A stretch of DNA of 64,000 bases from a virus: IMG/VR virus record IMGVR_UViG_3300035698_029335, positions 13,459 through 77,458 of that record; one strand, given 5' to 3'. How positions within the stretch are numbered: position 1 is the first letter of the stretch; each line of letters starts with the position of its first letter. Below the pieces are notes generated by a model. It did no database searches, was not told the DNA's origin, and saw nothing but the letters and a program-made list of their open reading frames with translations. The position numbers and the translations under genes were made by a program. This document shows, piece after piece, positions 3,737 through 35,194 of this stretch.

Positions 3737-4912
3737 TTACCACTTTCGATACAATTGTTGCTGAATAGTCCGATGGGTAAGATTATCAAATTCACTTTCC
3801 CACATTTCAATTACCGTGTAGCCTTTCTCTTGCAGGGTCTGCCTTCTCTTTAGCCATTCATTGTATAGTGTTTTGTATTTCTTTTTGGAGATTGGATTTA
3901 TACCTTCAGGAGGATATTTGCCTGGGTTGCCGTGCCAAAAGTCACCAAGGAACTCATATACTGTGTTTGTTAATGGATTAAATCCATCAACCCTATATCT
4001 ACCTATCTTATGCTGCCTTAAGAGTATTGTGTCTTCAGTCAATACACCTTTCGTTTCTGTTGTTGCAGCTTCTATTTGATCTAACCAAGCTGCTTCTTTT
4101 TTGGAGATTGAATTGCCGCACTTACGACAACCGCTGCCTGCAAGATGATTGCTAGGTGTCTGCTCAAACGTATTGTGGTTCCTACATGTTATTTTTACTT
4201 TTTCTTTATTATTCTTGTATTCGGTCAAACTGTATTCATATTTATCTCCATGTACCACCTGGGCTCTTTCTATGAACTCCTTAGTTGAGAGTCGTCTAGT
4301 ATCAGCAACAGTAATAATGCTGCACTTAGGGCAACCATGTCTTCTCTTGCTAGTATGGTCGCCTGGTGTTTGTAAGAAAGAGCCATGCTGCTTACATACT
4401 ATTATTATCTTTTCTTTATTACTTCTATACTCAGTCAAACTATAATCATATAAGTTACCATGCAACAGTTTTGCTTTTTCTATGAACTCCTTGGTTGAAA
4501 GTCGCATACCACATTTAAAGCAGCCGTTGCCGCCATTAGTGTGGTTGCTTGGTGCTTGCAAGAAAGAGCCGTGCTTTTTACATACTATTTCTACTTTTGT
4601 ATGAGTGCCTTTGTATTCAGTCGAGCTGTAATCATACTTGTCACCATGTGTCGCTCTTGCCTTTTCGATAAACTGCTCGGTTGAAAGTTGCCTGAGGTTG
4701 TTAGCTACAACAGCTCCACATTGGGGGCAGCCACTTTTTTTCGACTTATTGGTGTGATTGCTTGGCGTTTGAAAGAAAGAGCCGTGCTCTCTGCAGACTA
4801 TCTCGACTCTTGTACGTGTGTTTTTAAATTCAACCAAATTATAACTGTATCTTTCTCCATGCACTGCTTGAGCTTTTTCTACGAACTCAATTGTTGTTAA
4901 TTTTCTTCTCAC
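3737..4912 (-). CDS. free-standing homing endonuclease: 4 Cys/His repeat modules plus PD-(D/E)XK/Vsr-like nuclease
   Basis: 4x (EFIEKA..HG..YDYS..EY.....KV.I.C..HGSF.Q.P.NH....GCP.C), then VDGF..TNTVYEFLGDFWHGNP; GTG start after GAGGT. Confidence 0.75.
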   Translation of the reverse strand: MRRKLTTIEFVEKAQAVHGERYSYNLVEFKNTRTRVEIVCREHGSFFQTPSNHTNKSKKSGCPQCGAVVANNLRQLSTEQFIEKARATHGDKYDYSSTEYKGTHTKVEIVCKKHGSFLQAPSNHTNGGNGCFKCGMRLSTKEFIEKAKLLHGNLYDYSLTEYRSNKEKIIIVCKQHGSFLQTPGDHTSKRRHGCPKCSIITVADTRRLSTKEFIERAQVVHGDKYEYSLTEYKNNKEKVKITCRNHNTFEQTPSNHLAGSGCRKCGNSISKKEAAWLDQIEAATTETKGVLTEDTILLRQHKIGRYRVDGFNPLTNTVYEFLGDFWHGNPGKYPPEGINPISKKKYKTLYNEWLKRRQTLQEKGYTVIEMWESEFDNLTHRTIQQQLYRKW

Positions 4913-8346: not shown

Positions 8347-8816
8347 CGTCTCTCCAGTGTCTCACATACTAGTGGACCTTCTCTAGTGCCATCAAACTCC
8401 ACAACCATTGATGGAAAAGGTGCGCAATTTTTTTGATTACCGAACTTAAGACGACCTCTCACGAAGTAGATCTTTGTAGCTAGCATCACAAAGTCATTAA
8501 AGTATTTTGTGTCAGTACGTGAAGGTATAAGCATGACCGTCATCGTATCATCTTCTTTCGACTCCTCATAACACTTCTTTGCCCACCCCTTTACGTCAGA
8601 ATAAGGAGGGTTAACAAATACAGTATGCCCTTTCCATGATCTACTCAGTCCATCCATATCTTCAGTAAAGAAAACAGGGCACTTGGCGCTAGTAGCAGAA
8701 GCGCAAGGATCTAGTGTAAAATTGTACTTCTCATCTAGCATATCATAGAAGTCTTGCGGGGTGTCCCACTCATCACTCTTATTCGAAAACATTACTTTTG
8801 TTGAACTTTTATCCAT
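8343..8816 (-). CDS. phage DNA N6-adenine methyltransferase (Dam-like)
   Basis: DEWDTPQ, LDPCA, DGL...W, VFVNPPY, PSRTDT. Confidence 0.88.
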   Translation of the reverse strand: MDKSSTKVMFSNKSDEWDTPQDFYDMLDEKYNFTLDPCASATSAKCPVFFTEDMDGLSRSWKGHTVFVNPPYSDVKGWAKKCYEESKEDDTMTVMLIPSRTDTKYFNDFVMLATKIYFVRGRLKFGNQKNCAPFPSMVVEFDGTREGPLVCETLERR

Positions 8817-9327: not shown

Positions 9328-9601
9328 TTGTCACCCCTTGCGGTTATAACCATCTCTTCCTCTCCATCTAAAAATAGAGCGAACTTCTTTTCCTCTACGT
9401 ATTCTTCATATTCACCAATAACGAGTTTTGTAAGCTCGGTACCATCTTCCATTATCTCTAGAGTCATTTCAATCATTTTTCCTCCTTTATTATACAATGC
9501 ATACCATTACCACACTTGCTGCACTCTGGTGGCTTTCTAGGTTCTTTAGTCACTACTTTTTGTTTGTTCCCACAAACACTACACTCATATGTCCTCATTA
9601 C

Positions 9602-10597
9602 TTATCCCAATAATTTAAGGTTGTGTCTTATGGAGCGCGTACTAAAGCCCCACTGTTCATCATAATCTAGCTTTGCCATGTATGGTCTATTCATGTGCAC
9701 AACATCCTTCTTCTTATCATAGCCCCAACACTTGATCCTCGTGACTGTGTTTGTTTCATCGATAGTTTCCAAGATGGCGTAATCTTTTCCTTTTGCCGTT
9801 TTCTTTAGAACAATAGCCTTAGGGATAAACCAAGTTAATTCCATTACTGGATCATATTCAGCTATCGGAGGTACCTTATATGCTTCCAGACGTTCCCTCA
9901 CTGCATCACTCAGTACCATAGCTATAGGATATATACCAGTTAACTGAATAAGGTTCAGTATCCTCTCTTCTCTCGAAAAGTCGCCTTCAGGAGCGTACAA
10001 TTTAATGTTGGCTTCCAGCTGGTCTTTGTTTCTTGGTCGATCGACTGCGACACACGACCAAAAATGCTTAGCCCCAGTGAACCTTTCATCAACTAGCTGC
10101 GCTAGCGCACCTGAACGGCACAATACATCTAAGTTGCCTTTGTTTAGTTTTCCGTATGAAACTCTTTCGTGGAAAAGCAACTCCTCAACGCTATTAAATG
10201 GTCGGTAATTAACTATCTCTTTAATCGCCGCATCACCAACACCCTTTATAGAGCTGAGTGGTTGAATTAGTGTTTTGCTATCTTCTTCAGCAATTTCCCA
10301 CTTTGAACCAGAGGCATTAATATCAAGACCTCTAATTTTATAACCAAGACTCTTAATGATGTTGTTCGCTTCTTCTTTCTTTGCTTCGCCTTGAGCATCC
10401 AAATAAGCAGCCAGCCACTCTGATGGGTGATAAGTCATCAACCAAGCACACTGATAAGAAACCATTGAATATGAAACGGCATGGCTATTCGAGGTCAATG
10501 TACCGTCAGTCAAATAAAATTGATGATCTTCGTGCTCTACCTCTAAGTCATAAGTGTCTATCTCGCCCATTTCTTCACAAGAAATTATCATCGCCAT
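9602..10597 (-). CDS. dnaE: DnaE C-terminal part: 37-aa split-intein C fragment plus 294-aa C-extein
   Basis: TYDLEV...HQFYL.DG.LTSN|SHAVSYS..SYQ.AWL, HhH LSSIKGVG, OB fold; AGGAG SD. Confidence 0.92.
   Translation of the reverse strand: MAMIISCEEMGEIDTYDLEVEHEDHQFYLTDGTLTSNSHAVSYSMVSYQCAWLMTYHPSEWLAAYLDAQGEAKKEEANNIIKSLGYKIRGLDINASGSKWEIAEEDSKTLIQPLSSIKGVGDAAIKEIVNYRPFNSVEELLFHERVSYGKLNKGNLDVLCRSGALAQLVDERFTGAKHFWSCVAVDRPRNKDQLEANIKLYAPEGDFSREERILNLIQLTGIYPIAMVLSDAVRERLEAYKVPPIAEYDPVMELTWFIPKAIVLKKTAKGKDYAILETIDETNTVTRIKCWGYDKKKDVVHMNRPYMAKLDYDEQWGFSTRSIRHNLKLLG
10487..10597 (-). mobile_element. split intein C fragment (DnaE)
   Basis: Blocks F/G ending S-N, followed by +1 Ser. Confidence 0.9.
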
Positions 10598-13209: not shown

Positions 13210-13536
13210 TTATCTTAAAATAGTACCGCGAAAGCATCTTGTTATTGTGTGCCACTCACCGTCCCACGATGAATCACCCAACATCAATTGCCCTTTTTTG
13301 GTGTATACACCAACTCCATCAGTAACACCAAATTCATTCAGCAGACCGTTGAGTCGCTCTCTAGTGGTGGTCGTGTTCCATCCGGCAGTAGTAATGTGCA
13401 GCCCGAGATTAGAGAACTTTGCAATCTTGTTGCCGCGCAAAAACATCTCACCATCACGCACACATGTGTTTGCTTTGCCGAAGTTTTCTCCATCGAAAAA
13501 GGCTGCAGCTGCTTCTTTAGTGATCTTTCGTGACAT
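13210..13536 (-). CDS. hypothetical early protein
   Basis: First gene after a promoter, AGGAG SD; GW.TTTT.ERLN motif. Confidence 0.65.
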   Translation of the reverse strand: MSRKITKEAAAAFFDGENFGKANTCVRDGEMFLRGNKIAKFSNLGLHITTAGWNTTTTRERLNGLLNEFGVTDGVGVYTKKGQLMLGDSSWDGEWHTITRCFRGTILR

Positions 13537-21902: not shown

Positions 21903-22786
21903 AGTTCACGCTCACGCACTTTACTTGCAAGAGTGGCTGTATAATCGATCGCGTATTTGTGGACCCTAATCAATAGAATGTCTTTGGTAGCTACATACTT
22001 TTCGAGCATCAGATCTTTCTTTTGTACAACTTCAAGCTGCCCATGTATTTCTCTAAAATGATGTGGACCATCAACTTCTATTATCACCTTCATCCTTTTC
22101 GCATATATATCTATTTGCTTTCTCGACGTCAAGTTCATATCGAATAATACACTTTTTATCTGCCTGTTACTCTTAAAATCATATGTCGGAAATCTTTCCT
22201 TAATGTACATATACATCCACTTCTCTGGTTTAGACTTATACTTGTGCATTTGCTTTATACATTTGTTGTAGAAATCTTCTGGATTTTCTTTCCTCCATCG
22301 AGCAAGTACTTCAGCTCTCTTGTCTTGCACATCTTGTCTGGCTGAAGTTTTCATTGCTGTCTTTGAAGCACGTTCTCTAAAATCCTCTCTTTTGTTCAGA
22401 TTCCCAAGGAGTCTTGAGCGGCGAAGCCTCTCGGCAGGATTAGCCATTATCGATTTTGTTACAACTTGACCCATCCTAAGTTTTGCCTTCTCGGTCATGG
22501 TTTCATACCCCATCTCTTTACATCTGCTATTACTGCAGTTGTGCTCCTCCTTATAGTGTGGCGACAAATCGGCAGATACAAAGCTGCACAACTCACACGC
22601 TATAAGGTCTCCCAATTCTACACCCCTTTCCTTACAAAGCTCACAAACGTATCTGTGATTGAAGAAAGCCTTTATACTGTATAGTTCATAATCGCAAGCT
22701 ACAGCAGTTCCAAACCTCTCTTCGCAATCTCTCTTATTGGCAGCTTTTCTCCGCATTTTGTCCTGAATTTGTGATCTTTCGTGCAT
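21899..22786 (-). CDS. Vsr/DUF559-like endonuclease adjacent to the DnaE split intein, probably C-terminally disrupted
   Basis: SKPE, QIDIY, IIEVDGPHH, KD, LLIRV; the tail DYTATLASKV is GDLV-family sequence. Confidence 0.7.
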   Translation of the reverse strand: MHERSQIQDKMRRKAANKRDCEERFGTAVACDYELYSIKAFFNHRYVCELCKERGVELGDLIACELCSFVSADLSPHYKEEHNCSNSRCKEMGYETMTEKAKLRMGQVVTKSIMANPAERLRRSRLLGNLNKREDFRERASKTAMKTSARQDVQDKRAEVLARWRKENPEDFYNKCIKQMHKYKSKPEKWMYMYIKERFPTYDFKSNRQIKSVLFDMNLTSRKQIDIYAKRMKVIIEVDGPHHFREIHGQLEVVQKKDLMLEKYVATKDILLIRVHKYAIDYTATLASKVREREL

Positions 22787-25578
22787 CTTATTACTCTCCC
22801 GTCACTTAAAGTATACTTATACACTTTTTTGACGCCGTTTTTATGTCTCTTTTTGACAGGGAGAAAAATATCCTTTTTCGTCTTTTCAGAGCGCGAACGC
22901 ACAATATCACCTGGCAGTACGTCAATAATCCTCTTATCACACAAAACATCACCACCGTCACTATAAATAGTAACCAGTTCATCAAAGTGCAAGCAAGCGT
23001 TGAAACCATAGCCAGCCCATAGCTCGCAGGAATGATACAACTTTTCTGCATCCATCTTACTAATTCCTTTTTCAATGCAGCCATCAATAAACTTCGGCTT
23101 AATCTCAGCCAACACCTTGTCTGCTTTGCCAGTACCCTTCTTAGTTAATACCTTTCTGAAGATGTTTCCGTCGTTCAGCGAAATACCTTTGCCAAGCTTG
23201 TGTGCCAATAATGCGATTTGTTCTTGAAACACAAGGAACCCATAAGTATCTTCGGTAACTTCTTTATGTAGTGGATGCAAATACTCAATTGAAGATGGGT
23301 CTTTTCTTGCTTCAATATACAACTTATCCACCTTCATACCCAATGCAGCTGGTCGAAAGATAGAAGTGACTGCTGAAATATCAGTGATATTGGTAGGCTT
23401 TACTTTTGTGCAAAACTTCTGTGCTCCTTCACCTGTAAATTGAAAGATGCCAGCCCACTTGCCTTGATGGAACACTTCTTCATATACTCTTTGATCGTCC
23501 ACGTCCAAAACATCTGGGTGTAGATTTTCATCATAATACTTCCTAACATCCTCAAAAGAAGGTCTCTTGATGCCGCGTGTGCGCTGCAGAATTCTCCTTG
23601 TCGCACCATCGATCATCTCTAAAGTAGACAAACCTAAGATGTCGAACTTAATAAAGCCCATAGGTTCCAAGTGCCTAACATTTTGACCTTCACTCCACGG
23701 CGTTTGACGTACACCCTTGCCGCTGATTAGTGGCATGTATTTGTTTAAGTCTTCTCCAATAACGCAGCCACCAGCATGCTTTGACTGACTACGAATGGAG
23801 CCGTAAAGTGCATCAATATACACTTCCACTTGTGGGTGTTTAACTAGAAACTTGTTAAGCGTATCACTGTATTTTTTGATTTCCTCAAAAGTAGGCACAT
23901 ATATACCAGTCTTTATGCCATTAGCTTTTTTAGCAGCTGGTGTTGCCTCTGAAATCATCTTACCGGTCACAACATTGACCTCAGCAAAAGGTATATCATA
24001 AAGCTTCGAGATGTCTTTGACTAACGATTTCAGTTGCAAAGTATTCCAGTTGGTAATAGGTACCACTCGGTTCTCGCCCCAATCTTCGATAAGCAAATCT
24101 TTCAATTCTGATGGATTTGAAACATCATAATCGATATCAGGCATATCAACTGCATCCGCACGCAAGAAGCGTTCGAATTGTAGGTTGTATTTTATAGGAT
24201 CAATCTGCGTAATACCAAGCGCATATGCCACGATGCTACCAGCTGCAGAGCCTCGCCCAGGAGCAGTTAATTGTACTTTTACAGCCTTATCTGCAATAGC
24301 ATTCATTGTCAAGAAGTATTTTGCAAAATTAAGCTTAGAGATTACCCCTAGTTCGTACTCAATTCTGTTCGTGTATGCGTTAGATATACGATATATCCTT
24401 TTCTTGCTTTTGTTCTTAATACTGAAGACCTTTTTCAGTCCTATCCCAACCAGCTCTTTTAGTTCTTCATCAGCCGTTTTACCTTCAGGCACAACAAAGT
24501 CAGGCAAACGAATTGTTGTGTCTGGCGCAAAATCTTCGATTACGTCATGAGCAATACTGTGTGTTAACTCGATGGATTTTAGCACCAAGTCATCATCATA
24601 TTTAATGTCCAAATCTTTCGTATATTTCTTGTACGCTTCCCACATCTGATTGCCGTTTTTAGGATACAATTCATACCCAACTTCTTCAACAGTCGAAGGG
24701 ATATCTTCGATGGACGCGCCCTTGCCTCCCATCCAGCCCAACTTCTTGTATACTAGTCGTGACTGCCATGCTTCGGGGCTAGGGTAGTGGCTGTCAGCTG
24801 TAGAGATTAGTTGTACTCCAAACTCCTTAGCCACCTTAATTACTAATTGATTAATTTCGTGTTGTTCAGGAATTGCATTCCACTGCAGCTCTGCATACCA
24901 TCTATCACCAAAAATACCTTGCATCCTTCGTGTAGTTTCGCGCATTGCCTCTAGGACTGTTTCCTCCCCTTCCTCTCTATGCAACCAATAATCTTGAGCA
25001 TAAATTCCACCCATACAAGCCGATGTTGCAATAACGCCTTCGCTGTGCTTCTCCAACAGAGCATAGTCAATGCGAGGGAAGCGATAAAAGTTCTTCTCAG
25101 TGTAGGATTGTGAAATAATCTGAAAGAGGTTGTTTAACCCTGTTTGGTTTTGCGCCAACAGGATCATATGCGCTCTTCTGTTTACTATGTTTTTATTACT
25201 TTTTTTAGTTTCTTCTTCATCTTCGATAGTAGCGCCAATAGATGAACCTTCATCTTTCTTTTTTCTACCTTTCTTAGTTTTATTTTCTTCCGCAATCCGC
25301 TCTTTGTCGAGCTTCCATTGTGTTAGGTCTGGGTGGAAGTAAGCCTCTACACCATAGATTGCCTTAAACTCTTTACCAGCTTCTTTCATCTTCTTGGTAT
25401 GCAATACTTGCTCTACTAGACCGTTCATATGCCCATGGTTTGTGATAGCCATAGCATCTCCTCCGTTTTGATAACAAAAATCAAGATGTTGATCAGTAGG
25501 ACCAAACCCGTCAAAAATTGAATATCCGTCATGAGCATGCAAATTGACATATGGGATTTTAGAAACTGTTCTTTTCAT
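22699..25578 (-). CDS. dnaE: DnaE N-terminal part (861 aa) plus 98-aa split-intein N fragment
   Basis: PHP NLHAH..YS..DG, TNHG, GRGSAAGS, PDIDYD, KFDILGL, GIFQF, GYGFNA|CL. Confidence 0.95.
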   Translation of the reverse strand: MKRTVSKIPYVNLHAHDGYSIFDGFGPTDQHLDFCYQNGGDAMAITNHGHMNGLVEQVLHTKKMKEAGKEFKAIYGVEAYFHPDLTQWKLDKERIAEENKTKKGRKKKDEGSSIGATIEDEEETKKSNKNIVNRRAHMILLAQNQTGLNNLFQIISQSYTEKNFYRFPRIDYALLEKHSEGVIATSACMGGIYAQDYWLHREEGEETVLEAMRETTRRMQGIFGDRWYAELQWNAIPEQHEINQLVIKVAKEFGVQLISTADSHYPSPEAWQSRLVYKKLGWMGGKGASIEDIPSTVEEVGYELYPKNGNQMWEAYKKYTKDLDIKYDDDLVLKSIELTHSIAHDVIEDFAPDTTIRLPDFVVPEGKTADEELKELVGIGLKKVFSIKNKSKKRIYRISNAYTNRIEYELGVISKLNFAKYFLTMNAIADKAVKVQLTAPGRGSAAGSIVAYALGITQIDPIKYNLQFERFLRADAVDMPDIDYDVSNPSELKDLLIEDWGENRVVPITNWNTLQLKSLVKDISKLYDIPFAEVNVVTGKMISEATPAAKKANGIKTGIYVPTFEEIKKYSDTLNKFLVKHPQVEVYIDALYGSIRSQSKHAGGCVIGEDLNKYMPLISGKGVRQTPWSEGQNVRHLEPMGFIKFDILGLSTLEMIDGATRRILQRTRGIKRPSFEDVRKYYDENLHPDVLDVDDQRVYEEVFHQGKWAGIFQFTGEGAQKFCTKVKPTNITDISAVTSIFRPAALGMKVDKLYIEARKDPSSIEYLHPLHKEVTEDTYGFLVFQEQIALLAHKLGKGISLNDGNIFRKVLTKKGTGKADKVLAEIKPKFIDGCIEKGISKMDAEKLYHSCELWAGYGFNACLHFDELVTIYSDGGDVLCDKRIIDVLPGDIVRSRSEKTKKDIFLPVKKRHKNGVKKVYKYTLSDGRVIRCTKDHKFRTKCGEKLPIREIAKRGLELL
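22702..22995 (-). mobile_element. split intein N fragment (DnaE)
   Basis: Block A CLHFDE, block B IRCTKDHKF, ends LPIREIAKRGLELL-stop. Confidence 0.92.
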
Positions 25579-30355: not shown

Positions 30356-32281
30356 CTATTTTATGGGGCAAGCTCCTGACGCGCAACCAAGTTGGTCTTC
30401 TGTAATATCCTTTTCGGATATATGCAGATTAGTAATCGGTTGCACTTTTGCACGCATCTCTTCATATTCTTCTTTAGTGATCTCTTCGTATGGTGCCTGC
30501 ACAAATCCATGATCTGAATGTAAGCAAAATGATAGAGATTTTATATTAACGTTGTAGTTTTCTGTTAGCCAATTTTTTATAGCAGGCAGTTCTTCTTTCT
30601 TGTAATAAACTGTAACCGAAACTGCATTATCCGACCACTCAGTTTGTAAGCGCTTTACGATATCCAGTTGTTCAGTTGCATTAATATCTTTCGAAAATAT
30701 TGCGTGACTTGGCAGTTTGCATGGAAATTCAATGACATTTGTGCCATAGTTTTCAGAGCCATCGAGTTCTTTAGCAAATTCCACCTTATAGCCTTTTTCA
30801 CGACAAACATTGACCAATTCACTATCTGATGCGATTCTCATTCTCCGAATATGGTACTCAGAAAACCCTGGATGCCCGCCTGGTGTGACCCCAGCCAAAA
30901 GACTCAATGTACCACTAGGCTTGACTGTTGTCAATTTAATACTTTCAGGGAAACCATGTTTGTCACTATATTGTTTGTCGTATTCTCTTAGTTTTACGTA
31001 AGCTCCTGCTAGCCAACTCTTCTGCTCTTCTGTTGCCATACAGTAGCCTGTAATACCGATACCCATGCGCATATTAGCGTTCACAATAGCTTCCGTCTCC
31101 TTTTGGTGACATGGCAGTGCCAAACTATGCTTGTTTATTCTATAGAGGTACTTCAGCACTTTCATCAACTCTTCTTCACTCTCTATATTAGGGAGGAACG
31201 TCTCTGCCAAACAGCACGTTTCCTTATCAGCTAAACCTTGTTCGGCACATGGGTTAACCCCCTCAACTTTTGGATCTGGATATTGTAACTCTCCGGCTCG
31301 ACCCATCTTTCTGAAGTTTTCTATATTAATCAGTCCATATGGTTCTCCGTTGCCATTATATCCTTCCCAAAACTGCTCAGGCAACTTAGAAAAGTCGTCG
31401 CACACTACTGAGTTGTTGGAATTCTTTCGCCAATTAGGAATATTTCCCAAATCCCACCTTTTCGCATTTAGAAATTCAAAATCATCCATATCGCCGATGG
31501 CTATTTGCGCTGATCTTCTTATATTTCCAGCTACAACTATCTCTCCAATGATATTCATAATGTCCAAGCAATCAATTGGTCGAGCGCGCTTTCCTCGTCG
31601 AGCATCTAGCACTTTACAGATGTTGTCGATACCCTCAACAAGAATCTCAGGACCAGAAGCAGTACCTCCGAACCCCTTAATCTGGGTACCAGCTCCACGT
31701 ACACACATTGTAGAATAGCTAAAGCCTTCACCGGACAAAAAGTAAGCTTTAAGTACTTTACCCAAGAGTTTAACCCAACCTTGCCTCGTATCAGGTACAA
31801 TAAAGTCTACCCCTGCGCCCTCTTCTCTGTTAATTGCAATTTTCTTCTTCTTTACTTTAGGAAGTTGATATACATTTTCTCTCTGAATATTAAAGCCGAC
31901 GCCCGACCCTAACATTAGAGCATCCATTGCCCAAATAAAAGGATTGATAGGGTGATCTATAACCGTGAAAGAACAGTTCTGCAGGCTGAACAGTCCAAGC
32001 TTGTCGACTGTTTTCGTGCCGAGTTGCCAGAGAAATCGACCGGCGACGCTTCCTTTGAGATTCAAGAAGATATCTCGTAATTCCTCCTCTTCCTTGACAC
32101 TGAATCCTACACCTAGTTGCTTGTCGCAACCCTTCAGGATCCGCTCTATTGTGTCTTTAAACTCTTCTGTCTTTTCAGAATTCTCTTTCAGCCTACGCGC
32201 ATAGGTTCTCTTATAAACAATATAGCCAATCTCTCCCCATGGCGTTTCTACTTCTCTACTAAACAAGCTATCAATATTCAT
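30356..32281 (-). CDS. nrdJ: class II (adenosylcobalamin) ribonucleotide reductase
   Basis: KRTYAR, AGR.LW, NC, G.GVG, RRSA, NPCAE, TTVKPSGT, C-terminal CASGACP; no beta subunit nearby. Confidence 0.88.
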   Translation of the reverse strand: MNIDSLFSREVETPWGEIGYIVYKRTYARRLKENSEKTEEFKDTIERILKGCDKQLGVGFSVKEEEELRDIFLNLKGSVAGRFLWQLGTKTVDKLGLFSLQNCSFTVIDHPINPFIWAMDALMLGSGVGFNIQRENVYQLPKVKKKKIAINREEGAGVDFIVPDTRQGWVKLLGKVLKAYFLSGEGFSYSTMCVRGAGTQIKGFGGTASGPEILVEGIDNICKVLDARRGKRARPIDCLDIMNIIGEIVVAGNIRRSAQIAIGDMDDFEFLNAKRWDLGNIPNWRKNSNNSVVCDDFSKLPEQFWEGYNGNGEPYGLINIENFRKMGRAGELQYPDPKVEGVNPCAEQGLADKETCCLAETFLPNIESEEELMKVLKYLYRINKHSLALPCHQKETEAIVNANMRMGIGITGYCMATEEQKSWLAGAYVKLREYDKQYSDKHGFPESIKLTTVKPSGTLSLLAGVTPGGHPGFSEYHIRRMRIASDSELVNVCREKGYKVEFAKELDGSENYGTNVIEFPCKLPSHAIFSKDINATEQLDIVKRLQTEWSDNAVSVTVYYKKEELPAIKNWLTENYNVNIKSLSFCLHSDHGFVQAPYEEITKEEYEEMRAKVQPITNLHISEKDITEDQLGCASGACPIK

Positions 32282-32285
32282 TATT

Positions 32286-32768
32286 CTATTCCTCTTCCTT
32301 ATTGTTTTTGTTTTTACTTTTCGTCTTAAAAGCTTCGTACTTTTCTTTAAGTCGCTCTTTTTGCACTTTCGCGCCATTCCTTTGAATGTCTTCTATTGAG
32401 TCGTCTGTTGGCTCAAATACCTTTATGGCAACATTGGAGGTGTCCATGAAAACTGGACATACAATCCCATCATCTCCGTTCCGGTTCTTAGCTATAAAAA
32501 TCCTACCGCCATTAACCTGCTTATCAGCAATTGTTCGTGAAAGAGAGAAGATAAAGTCTGCCACAAAGCACTTATTGAATGCCTCGCTGATCGCCTCCAT
32601 AGTTACCACTTCTGCATTAAGACCTGAATTATGCGTGTACACTCCATTTTCTAGAAAAAACATATGAGTATCATCAACAGTAATGTCTATTGTTTCTTCA
32701 TCTCCGTACTCTTCTATCGAAGCTATTTCATCTATATTAAAATCTGCTATATTAAGTTCATGTTTCAT
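32286..32768 (-). CDS. helicase C-terminal part: 47-aa split-intein C fragment plus 113-aa C-extein
   Basis: TIDITV..THMFF.NGVYTHN|SG...ISE.F.K..VAD, KNRNG. Confidence 0.9.
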   Translation of the reverse strand: MKHELNIADFNIDEIASIEEYGDEETIDITVDDTHMFFLENGVYTHNSGLNAEVVTMEAISEAFNKCFVADFIFSLSRTIADKQVNGGRIFIAKNRNGDDGIVCPVFMDTSNVAIKVFEPTDDSIEDIQRNGAKVQKERLKEKYEAFKTKSKNKNNKEEE

Positions 32769-33841
32769 TTTTTCTCCATGAGATAATGTACGCACTTATC
32801 TACTGCTTTTAGTGGGTTTTCATCATATTCTTCTTCAGTGATCCTGAGAATTTGATAGCCTTTTTTTCTTAAGATTTTTTCCTTAATCGAGTCTTTCTCT
32901 TCTATTCTCGCAAGTGAGTGCCAATAAGTTCCATCAAACTCTATCACTTTGTCTTTATATAAAAAATCAACAGAAAACCAAAAACCACCTCCCATATCTT
33001 GATATTCTTTAAATTTAAATTTCTTCTCATTTCCAGCTTCTGCAAACAACACTTCAGACTCTAACAAAGAAGACTCTTTTAGGATACTCCAAAAAAGATT
33101 TTGAGATTTTTTGGAATAAGTATTACCTCGGCTACTACGCCTTGGGCTATCCATACCTTTGATAGATAACTCTGACATATGTTGGCAATATTTTTCCCAT
33201 TCTACTTCTGATTCTTCGCCATATTTCTCTTCAAACCACTCTTTTGAAAACCTTTTTCTCTGGTTCTTTCTTCTAGCATCCCACTTCCTGAGCCCCTCTT
33301 CTTTGCCATCGCGCTCAACAAACGATTCGAGCGATAATCCATTACCCCATCCGCCTTTACTTTTGACACTTTTTGTCCACTTTTCCAAATATTCTTCCCT
33401 CTTTTGCTTACCGACCTCATCACCATAACGTCTAATAAAAGAAGCCTCATCTATACTTGCTTTTGATGCACATAAATCTTCCCAAGCCAGTGTGCCATGG
33501 GTTTCGCTATAAACTTCCTTACTGAGTTTTTCTTTAGATGCTGCTATTTTTTCTTCGCGGAGTCTTTTTCCTTTCACGCCATATCTATTCTCATATGATT
33601 CTAAAGAACTGCTATCGTTTTTGAATTTCATTTTTGAGTTTTCAACTCGTTCACACCAATTTGGCTCAACGTTATGCTCTATCATTCTCAATAACATCGG
33701 TGTACAATTGTGAAAAGACCACCCTCGCTCTGTGCACATTTCATACACAGCTGCTAACTCTAGTGCTGCAGAGTCTGAAATGTTCACAACTCCTTTGTAA
33801 CTCTTGAACGACAATATTCTATTTATTATTTCATGTTTCAT
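32765..33841 (-). CDS. Vsr/DUF559-like endonuclease between the helicase intein halves
   Basis: RYG.E.G repeats; VDF...KVIEFDGTYWH...D..K...GY.ILRI.E. Confidence 0.8.
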   Translation of the reverse strand: MKHEIINRILSFKSYKGVVNISDSAALELAAVYEMCTERGWSFHNCTPMLLRMIEHNVEPNWCERVENSKMKFKNDSSSLESYENRYGVKGKRLREEKIAASKEKLSKEVYSETHGTLAWEDLCASKASIDEASFIRRYGDEVGKQKREEYLEKWTKSVKSKGGWGNGLSLESFVERDGKEEGLRKWDARRKNQRKRFSKEWFEEKYGEESEVEWEKYCQHMSELSIKGMDSPRRSSRGNTYSKKSQNLFWSILKESSLLESEVLFAEAGNEKKFKFKEYQDMGGGFWFSVDFLYKDKVIEFDGTYWHSLARIEEKDSIKEKILRKKGYQILRITEEEYDENPLKAVDKCVHYLMEKK

Positions 33842-33862
33842 GTTTCATGTTTCATGTTTCAT
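33829..33862 (-). repeat. (ATGAAAC)x4 plus ATGAAA tandem repeat
   Basis: Plus strand reads ttcatgt x4 then ttcat at the IntN/endonuclease boundary. Confidence 0.95.
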
Positions 33863-35194
33863 TTTTTTTGTTAATATCCCATCAGACACTTCTAAGCCTT
33901 CGTTTATTGACTTTAGTGTGCCATCTGCTGTTGGAAATTGATGTCTTGCAGAACAAATCATCGTTTTTCCACTTTTTAATGTAATTTTATAGGTTTTTTG
34001 TACTTCTTTAGGAAATACCTTAGTAACATCTTTGAAACCTTTATGTGTTTCAACCTGGTCGCCAACTCTTATGTCTCCTATTTTGATACTCCTTGATGCA
34101 CTACCATCTCTAATAAGTAGTTTAGTAGAGGTTGAAAAGCATCTATTTGTTTGGCTCGCAGTCCACAATGGACAAGCAAACTCGCCCGCAAGACCTCTTA
34201 ATTCCTCATAGATTGACTCCAGCTCATTTCTCTTCTCACGTTCCATCCTAGTTGGCTTGAGTAGATCGCCATAGTCAACTATAATAAGATTTACTTCGAA
34301 GCCTCGCTGAATTACTCTTGTCAAGTGGCTTCTAATCGTCGCAACACTCGCCGACTTAGTTGGATATTCTTTGATAATCAATTTACCGTTAAGGCTTTTG
34401 ATTTCTTCAAAGACTTCATCCTTCAGTCCATTGAGGGAGTTTAAGGGAAATTCAGTAATACACGAATCATATCTTCTGCCAACAACGGTATCTTGCAACT
34501 CTAGTGTATAGTGCACCACATTTAAGCCTGCTTTGAGAGCTGCAGCGCCAATATGCACCAATGCCATACTCTTACCCGCACCTGTTGGAGCGATACACAC
34601 TCCTAACTCTCCCTTACCGTGTCCACCTTGAATTAGACCATCAATAACATCCCAACCAGTTGATACTGGGTTTCGAGATTTCACGAGATAGCGTGACTCA
34701 AAATGCTTCAGGAAATCGTAACCCTGCTCATTGTCAGAACCTAATTTCAAGGCTTTGTTGATTATTTCTTGCACTGCGTCAAAAGAACTACTCTCCATCA
34801 ACTGAACGCTTTCTAACATTGCCGCTTTGAGGGTCTGCTTTTTGCAAAAATCAATTGACTTTTCCTTAACATACTCTTCATTAACTTCTTTCAGTGCACC
34901 AGAGACGATCTTAGCAAAATAATCCCTCACCTGCTTCTGCACAGTAGCATTCATGTGCTCTATTTCAGACCTAAGGAGAGATTCTACTGTATTTCTACTA
35001 GGATAAGCGCCATACTTATCTCGATAAGAATAGATAAGCTTGGTGAACTCTTGCAGATACTTTAATTCAAGAAAACTGGTCTTTAATACTTCGCCTACTT
35101 GATCTGCAAACATCGTATCGTCCATTATCAGCTGTGCCAGTTTTTCTTGAAACGGCTTTCCGAACTTCGATAATGAGGCTTCTTCTTCTATCAT
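33845..35194 (-). CDS. gp41/DnaB-like replicative helicase N-terminal part (351 aa) plus split-intein N fragment
   Basis: STGW..ID, APTGAGKS, YTLE, IIKEYPT, IIVDY.DL, WTASQTNR|CF; intein block B ICSARHQF. Confidence 0.92.
   Translation of the reverse strand: MIEEEASLSKFGKPFQEKLAQLIMDDTMFADQVGEVLKTSFLELKYLQEFTKLIYSYRDKYGAYPSRNTVESLLRSEIEHMNATVQKQVRDYFAKIVSGALKEVNEEYVKEKSIDFCKKQTLKAAMLESVQLMESSSFDAVQEIINKALKLGSDNEQGYDFLKHFESRYLVKSRNPVSTGWDVIDGLIQGGHGKGELGVCIAPTGAGKSMALVHIGAAALKAGLNVVHYTLELQDTVVGRRYDSCITEFPLNSLNGLKDEVFEEIKSLNGKLIIKEYPTKSASVATIRSHLTRVIQRGFEVNLIIVDYGDLLKPTRMEREKRNELESIYEELRGLAGEFACPLWTASQTNRCFSTSTKLLIRDGSASRSIKIGDIRVGDQVETHKGFKDVTKVFPKEVQKTYKITLKSGKTMICSARHQFPTADGTLKSINEGLEVSDGILTKKMKHET

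Follow-up and report, generated by a model that had tools for sequence, protein, structure and literature searches.

Fractured genes were described in 2009 by Dassa, London, Stoddard, Schueler-Furman and Pietrokovski, and the loci reported included the gp41 helicase loci gp41-1 to gp41-9 (PMC2677866). Phage gp41 helicases, accompanied by endonucleases of the same family as the one dealt with here, were among the first examples, and step IIIa of the model put forward in that work foresees the loss of the endonuclease flanks (PMC2677866). Cis-splicing has been described for the two gp41-1 intein halves once they are fused across the split site (Beyer et al., 10.1101/546465), and the prototype of the EDxHD homing endonucleases is I-Bth0305I (PMC3239194, PDB 3r3p). 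Here we analysed a viral DNA stretch of 64,000 nucleotides (the window; positions 13,459 to 77,458 of the IMG/VR record IMGVR_UViG_3300035698_029335), in which a phage replication helicase gene is divided into two pieces that carry the N-terminal (IntN) and C-terminal (IntC) segments of an intein, with an endonuclease gene lying between them. It belongs to the known class of fractured genes, of which it represents a leaderless and tightly packed variant.

We consider it likely that a large, uncultured phage from a salt lake here carries a fractured gene with a slippage microsatellite and a leaderless, coupled layout. The helicase would be made as two polypeptides, the N-extein with IntN and IntC with the C-extein, and a gp41-1-like class 1 split intein (Cys1, HN, Ser+1) would ligate these halves by trans-splicing to yield a helicase of 464 amino acids (aa). 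The presumed targets of the endonuclease are helicase alleles of co-infecting phages that lack the intein or the endonuclease, and cutting them would spread the cassette. In this clade no untranslated leader precedes the endonuclease, and the three open reading frames (ORFs) abut or overlap, so that termination-reinitiation coupling probably accounts for the translation of the endonuclease and of IntC.

Anatomy of the helicase halves and the endonuclease gene

A preliminary description of this DNA had divided a helicase intein among three ORFs, the middle one being the endonuclease that separates IntN from IntC, and both the ORF listing and the homologies agreed with this arrangement. Every gene of the intein-helicase locus lies on the minus strand; its parts, in window positions, are the following.

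35194..33845, minus strand: ORF of the helicase N-extein and IntN, 449 aa, with the C-terminal end LTKK-MKHET-TGA
34142..35194, minus strand: helicase N-extein, residues 1-351, of the DnaB/gp41 type, ending in WTASQTNR (Pfam DnaB_C, E 5e-15)
33848..34141, minus strand: IntN, 98 aa, starting with Cys1 (CFSTS), with a match to the gp41-1 structure and weak Hint and Intein_splicing Pfam matches
33829..33869, minus strand: first boundary, with seven consecutive A (33869-33863) ahead of four ATGAAAC units and ATGAAA
32765..33841, minus strand: free-standing homing endonuclease, 358 aa, starting MKHEII, apparently intact, with a C-terminal Vsr-like (EDxHD) domain
32757..32773, minus strand: second boundary, with the second copy of a 17-mer, from direct reading of the sequence
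32768..32286, minus strand: ORF of IntC and the helicase C part, 160 aa, with the ATG start MKHELNIADF; the ORF listing extends it to an upstream GTG at 32795
32628..32768, minus strand: IntC, 47 aa, MKHELNIADF...GVYTHN, placed by alignment to inteins and by homologous IntC starts in relatives
32286..32627, minus strand: helicase C-extein, 113 aa plus stop, starting SGLNAEV and resuming the helicase of the viral contig L002 exactly past SQTNR

The contig L002 contains an uninterrupted helicase of 464 aa that is 80% identical to the exteins and reads SQTNR/SGLNAEV (the slash marks the insertion point). Since this length equals the sum of 351 and 113 residues, the splice junction is exact at SQTNR/SGLNAEV. 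All the catalytic residues of an intein are present in the translations, namely Cys1, the block B His (CSARHQFPT), the terminal GVYTHN and Ser+1, and C352 and H418, among others, were invariant across 11 sequences. IntN matched the gp41-1 split intein structure 6qaz with an E value of 3e-14, and IntC aligned, weakly (E ~0.1), with the C-terminal segment of gp41-1 (6qaz) and with that of the DnaB mini-inteins 4o1r and 1mi8. The canonical end of IntN is GILTKK, to which the heptamer array of the first boundary adds a tail of five residues, MKHET, before the stop codon TGA at 33847-33845.

A Pfam scan of the endonuclease identified DUF559 (26.6 bits, cut-off 20.6) as well as MTES_1575, and found no NUMOD motifs. 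Its match to 3r3p, the catalytic domain of I-Bth0305I, was weak (E 0.0015) and covered 54 residues. Residues E301, D303, H308 and D317 were invariant across nine homologues, and these conserved E, D, H and D residues fit the EDxHD motif of the I-Bth0305I family (PMC3239194).

Relatives, age of the split and genomic setting

Relatives of the locus were gathered by homologue searches and two motif scans. The viral loci with the most similar helicases had no intein at the helicase site in any instance (81 of 81), and in every intein-bearing relative IntN was more similar than the extein, for example 70% vs. 56%. As IntN outscores the exteins and the closest helicases are intein-free, the cassette is sporadic and probably spreads horizontally, as expected of a homing element. 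All the intein-bearing relatives found use the same insertion site, immediately after SQxNR.

The three-ORF layout was fully seen in the relatives L256, L260 and L246/L247/L254, while the L270 sequence is cut within the endonuclease. Where the layout is the same, the endonucleases are 40-55% identical and the IntN segments 46-72% identical. Because relatives with so diverged an endonuclease share the three ORFs, the split is, judging from these identities, old and not nascent. A search with IntN only, over 1.84 billion representatives, gave 80 matches at E <= 1e-10 that were counted by hand: approximately 69 stop within a few residues of the IntN end, about nine run on past it, and two are multi-stretch repeat proteins. 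The preliminary view of a split intein being born is therefore not supported, since diverged relatives have the same layout, the IntN family is overwhelmingly split, and the arrangement was published in 2009 (PMC2677866). A contiguous mini-intein homologue does exist in P0036, a helicase of 616 aa; the search of longer proteins gave none in which this IntN is accompanied by an endonuclease in frame, which is weak evidence.

In a distant clade (L246, L247, L254, L263 and others), IntN ends with LFTKKS and a stop, and a spacer of about 55 nt, in which a Shine-Dalgarno motif accompanies an element resembling TATAAATA, precedes the endonuclease; this is the layout of 2009. The close clade has no spacer: the IntN stop and the endonuclease start overlap by 4 nt in L260 (ATGA) and by 11 nt in L256, and are separated by a gap of 1 nt in L270 and of 2 nt in L272. 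The IntN ends of these relatives read LLTRK or LLTKK, followed by the stop. The overlap of endonuclease stop and IntC start at the second boundary measures 4-14 nt in L260, L272, L267, L256 and L246.

Two relatives contain only remnants of the endonuclease. That of L272 (5609-5818, minus strand; 69 aa) combines residues 1-8 with residues 309-349 of an endonuclease of the P0005 type, and its middle is scrambled; as the retained parts are 98% identical to the intact P0005, the deletion is very recent. That of L267 (1340-1462, minus strand; 40 aa) has a MIDRIL start like those of endonuclease homologues, followed by the last 36 endonuclease residues and an ATGA overlap. In both remnants the frame is open from the original start through the stop that overlaps the IntC start. 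As these two loci indicate, endonuclease decay in the close clade is by internal deletions that keep both junctions, with the split retained. Since both junctions stay open, the remnants argue, indirectly, for a coupling of IntC translation to that of the ORF before it. Together, the contiguous mini-intein, the fractured genes with a spacer, those without a spacer and the remnants with open junctions form a series within one family that documents the homing cycle, and this series points to a dependence of the C-terminal helicase half, for its translation, on the ORF upstream.

A separate observation was made in L246, where a regular-expression scan flagged two further candidate IntC-like ends, LLVHN/C and GTLSHN/T, downstream of the locus (reverse complement, ~8560-8760 and ~9548-9720). 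These may represent further split or contiguous inteins in neighbouring genes.

The window comes from a 77-kb IMG/VR virus record with an estimated completeness of 43%, and the metagenome runs that contain it (X1-X4) are salt-lake samples. A blastn search of the stretch against 50,697 phage records gave no matches, and tblastn with the endonuclease as query gave three distant matches only. The neighbours of the locus are phage DNA-replication genes, with a 5'-3' exonuclease upstream and NrdJ downstream. The latter, a class II ribonucleotide reductase (NrdJ-like; 30356-32281, minus strand), is uninterrupted and lies directly downstream of the helicase; its ORF listing reaches an ATG at 32377, and its likely start is MNIDSLF at 32281, 4 nt past the helicase stop. 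Further along is a phage DnaE gene (22699-25578, minus strand) with PHP, NTPase and finger domains, whose match ceases after GYGFNA. Its C-terminal end is a second IntN (CLHFDELV...RGLELL, then the stop), 33% identical to the helicase IntN (E 6e-7), and the genome therefore has at least two split inteins of one superfamily.

The heptamer array and the 17-bp repeat

What the preliminary description had read at the two boundaries, and the frame arithmetic that it drew from them, proved correct. Four ATGAAAC units plus ATGAAA stand at the first boundary by direct reading, and Tandem Repeats Finder reported a repeat of period 7 with 5.4 copies and a score of 69 at 33829-33866. The array contains ATG codons at 33862, 33855, 33848, 33841 and 33834, and the endonuclease starts at the fourth of them (33841). 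IntN also stops within the array, and the endonuclease is in the same frame, with TGA-AAC between them and thus a 3-nt gap; according to a reading by hand, a deletion of 21 nt would fuse IntN and the endonuclease in frame. Across the second boundary, TGA and ATG share bases as ATGA, the former (32767-32765) ending the endonuclease and the latter (32768-32766) starting IntC, and one A added to the six-A run at this point would put the endonuclease in frame with IntC. The 17-mer AAAAAATGAAACATGAA is found exactly at both boundaries (33851-33867 and 32757-32773), 1094 bp apart, and recombination across the two copies would produce the 1.09-kb in-frame deletion to a mini-intein reading TKK-MKHE-LNIADF. 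When up to two mismatches were allowed, AAAAAATGAAACATGAA had five matches against 0.11 expected, a count reached in none of 100 shuffles; the 12-mer ATGAAACATGAA had no further occurrence in the window.

Shine-Dalgarno motifs are present at the helicase start (GGGGAG) and at the IntC start (GGAG, 6 nt upstream). The endonuclease start has no such motif, and the codon there is AAA where relatives have the Arg codon AGG; in four relatives the AGG of T-R-K yields AGGA, at 6-8 nt from the start codon of the endonuclease and upstream of it. When the RNA of both boundaries was folded, no structure exceeded that of shuffles (z -0.77 for the first boundary), a promoter and terminator scan of the locus gave nothing above shuffles, and the TATAAATA late promoter is absent from the coding strand.

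We followed by hand the frames that result from different numbers (n) of full ATGAAAC units before ATGAAAT. For every n of 2 or more, IntN ends in MKHET-TGA and the endonuclease begins (MKHEII) at the last full unit, leaving the proteins unchanged; the distance from the IntN stop to the endonuclease start is -11, -4, +3 and +10 nt for 2, 3, 4 and 5 units, respectively. The overlaps at n = 2 and n = 3 match those of L256 and L260, and the gap at n = 4 resembles those of L270 and L272. Fusion of IntN to the endonuclease occurs only at n = 1, where IntC is still a separate protein and the intein would therefore still splice in trans. Since n of 2 or more gives the same three proteins and only n = 1 fuses two of them, the array is not a frame switch, and the gain or loss of one unit does not switch the product, 2, 3, 4 and 5 units being equivalent. 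The idea of a slippage switch between cis and trans splicing is weakened by this result and appears unlikely.

The ATGAAAC array at the intein locus was found in no relative, and the 17-bp repeat was present in this genome only among the five loci compared; the two junctions within each relative share just 5-7 nt. With neither element in the relatives, the repeat is unrelated to intein continuity there, which is the outcome that the preliminary description had set as refuting its reading. A flank pattern with a variable gap (22-52 nt) had no matches in the metagenome contigs, a set apparently without near-identical records. In the viral contigs, three consecutive ATGAAAC units occurred at five loci, all of them in unrelated intergenic DNA. 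The related contigs L004 (reverse complement, 4730-4757) and L007 (1821-1904) have 4 vs. 12 ATGAAAC units at a homologous intergenic site, located past a short ORF and unrelated to inteins, which constitutes a variable microsatellite.

The endonuclease start of L260 reads ATGAAAG-TTGAAAC (MKVET), so a cryptic 7-nt periodicity would be older than the array, and two substitutions would perfect it and render it prone to slippage. Most likely, the array is a microsatellite produced by replication slippage, for which the imperfect duplicate ATGAAAC-ATGAAAT already present at the endonuclease start served as the seed. It would be tolerated because n of 2 or more keeps both the IntN TGA and the endonuclease start in the last unit, so that only the stop-start distance varies, and it looks like a harmless stutter, not a switch. 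As to the 17-bp repeat, MKHE at the endonuclease start resembles the MKVE of L260, and MKHE at the IntC start resembles the MNHS of L260 and L267; both start regions would thus have been similar beforehand, and the IntC copy looks like the derived one. The 17-bp identity is private to this genome and hence recent, and it probably came from short-patch copying between these two already similar regions. The repeat could mediate loss of the endonuclease; nothing indicates that this has occurred.

Two further candidates were discarded. A target-site duplication left by the original endonuclease insertion does not account for the 17-bp repeat, given that the insertion is older than the divergence of the relatives that lack the repeat. 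Transcriptional slippage or a programmed frameshift, as a designed property of the A run, would leave the architecture unchanged, a -1 slip giving LTKK and a stop, as in the relatives, and a +1 slip a short alternative tail.

Slippage of the array might nevertheless act as an expression rheostat, tuning the endonuclease by altering the stop-start distance and the number of MKHET decoy mini-ORFs, with n = 1 tethering it to IntN. The array does lie exactly on the stop/start junction, the absence of a Shine-Dalgarno motif at the endonuclease start means that reinitiation distance should matter, the distances at 2, 3 and 4 units are near those of L256, L260 and L270/L272, and the 4 vs. 12 units at the unrelated L004/L007 locus imply that the heptamer is slippage-prone. 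However, no copy-number variation was seen at the helicase locus, the proteins are identical at 2 or more units, the array is confined to this genome among its relatives, and four units are short for a phase-variable tract; on balance we regard a rheostat as unlikely. It is decidedly unlikely, in our judgement, that the locus is dynamic as a whole, with slippage of the heptamer and of the A runs and recombination across the 17-bp repeat jointly interconverting four states in the phage population, namely the three-ORF split, the IntN-endonuclease tethered form, the canonical endonuclease intein and the endonuclease-free cis mini-intein. If this were true, the whole homing cycle would be sampled by one genome, and steps III and IIIa of the Dassa model could be watched as they happen.

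An intein that was recently fractured, or a reversible switch in which recombination across the 17-bp repeat gives a cis mini-intein and small slips give a canonical endonuclease intein, would agree with the frame arithmetic, with the existence of P0036, with the cis-splicing of the joined gp41-1 halves (10.1101/546465) and with endonuclease-flank loss as step IIIa (PMC2677866). We hold it to be very unlikely, as the split is common to relatives with 40-55% endonuclease identity and hence old, the 17-bp repeat is in none of them, L272 and L267 retained the split on losing the endonuclease and, as weak evidence, no longer IntN protein with an in-frame endonuclease was found. Tandem repeats are error-prone on some platforms, and the true number of units could be lower than four if the array were an assembly or sequencing artefact. 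On the other hand, the 38-bp array is well within one short read, the surrounding ORFs are clean and all starts and stops fit; moreover, the Logan contigs of run X1 (117 million letters), possibly the sample of origin, hold all the words sampled from 32600-34100, which do not necessarily span the array. An artefact is thus highly improbable.

Several points weigh against the fractured gene with a leaderless, coupled layout that we favour. The locus is without the spacer, the hairpin and the late promoter of the 2009 loci, and the IntC match to solved inteins, taken by itself, is weak (E ~0.1). The anatomy, the homologies, the distribution among relatives and the frame logic are shown by the sequences, while splicing, homing, endonuclease activity, translational coupling and the way in which the repeats arose are all things that we infer. 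The neutrality of the array follows from frame logic, and the stop-start distance could change endonuclease output. Finally, chance falls far short of explaining why the two boundaries are identical over exactly 17 nt, and no cause has been demonstrated for it.

Comparison with described systems

The fractured-gene arrangement itself has been known since 2009 and is textbook knowledge for intein specialists. In the leaderless gp41-1-like clade the three ORFs abut or overlap, with the endonuclease as the central cistron, and this layout corresponds to an intermediate whose existence had been predicted but not shown, on the way to an intein that contains an endonuclease in frame. The new gp41-1 relatives with Ser+1 may be of interest to protein engineers, whereas the heptamer array and the 17-bp repeat are for now curiosities.

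Simple-sequence contingency loci have in common with this locus a short tandem repeat on a start/stop junction, where a change in copy number could alter expression. The locus differs from them in having only four units and in coding for the same proteins at n of 2 or more, and no polymorphism was seen. The endonuclease is similar to I-Bth0305I in its C-terminal Vsr-like nuclease domain, in the E, D, H and D residues that it keeps and in its long non-catalytic N-terminal region; however, I-Bth0305I belongs to a group I intron in recA (PMC3239194), whereas the endonuclease described here is free-standing within a split intein.

The intein shares with gp41-1 (6qaz, 6riz; 10.1101/546465) a homologous IntN, Cys1, the terminal HN and Ser+1, as well as the same split position at the conserved endonuclease-insertion loop. 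The differences lie in the sequence, as the IntN segments are ~45% identical over 73 residues, and in the several extra split-site residues on both IntN and IntC here. We take the native flanks of gp41-1, which is inserted at position 356 of P-SSM2 gp41, to be SGY/SSS, in which case its insertion would be perhaps three residues downstream of the NR/SGL site used here.

The closest resemblance is to the fractured genes (PMC2677866). As in those loci, a phage replication helicase is in two same-strand pieces, IntN continues the reading frame of the N part and IntC opens that of the C part, the halves are separated by a free-standing gene for a Vsr-like endonuclease whose 3' end overlaps the IntC start, and the setting is among phage DNA-replication genes. 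The 2009 loci have a non-coding leader of 27-51 nt, a hairpin and a TATAAATA late promoter before the endonuclease, all absent here; in place of the leader there is a 3-nt, same-frame gap within a microsatellite of heptamers. On the downstream side the ORFs overlap by 4 nt, compared with 6-69 nt in the 2009 loci (PMC2677866), and, unlike those loci, an exact 17-bp direct repeat brackets the endonuclease ORF.

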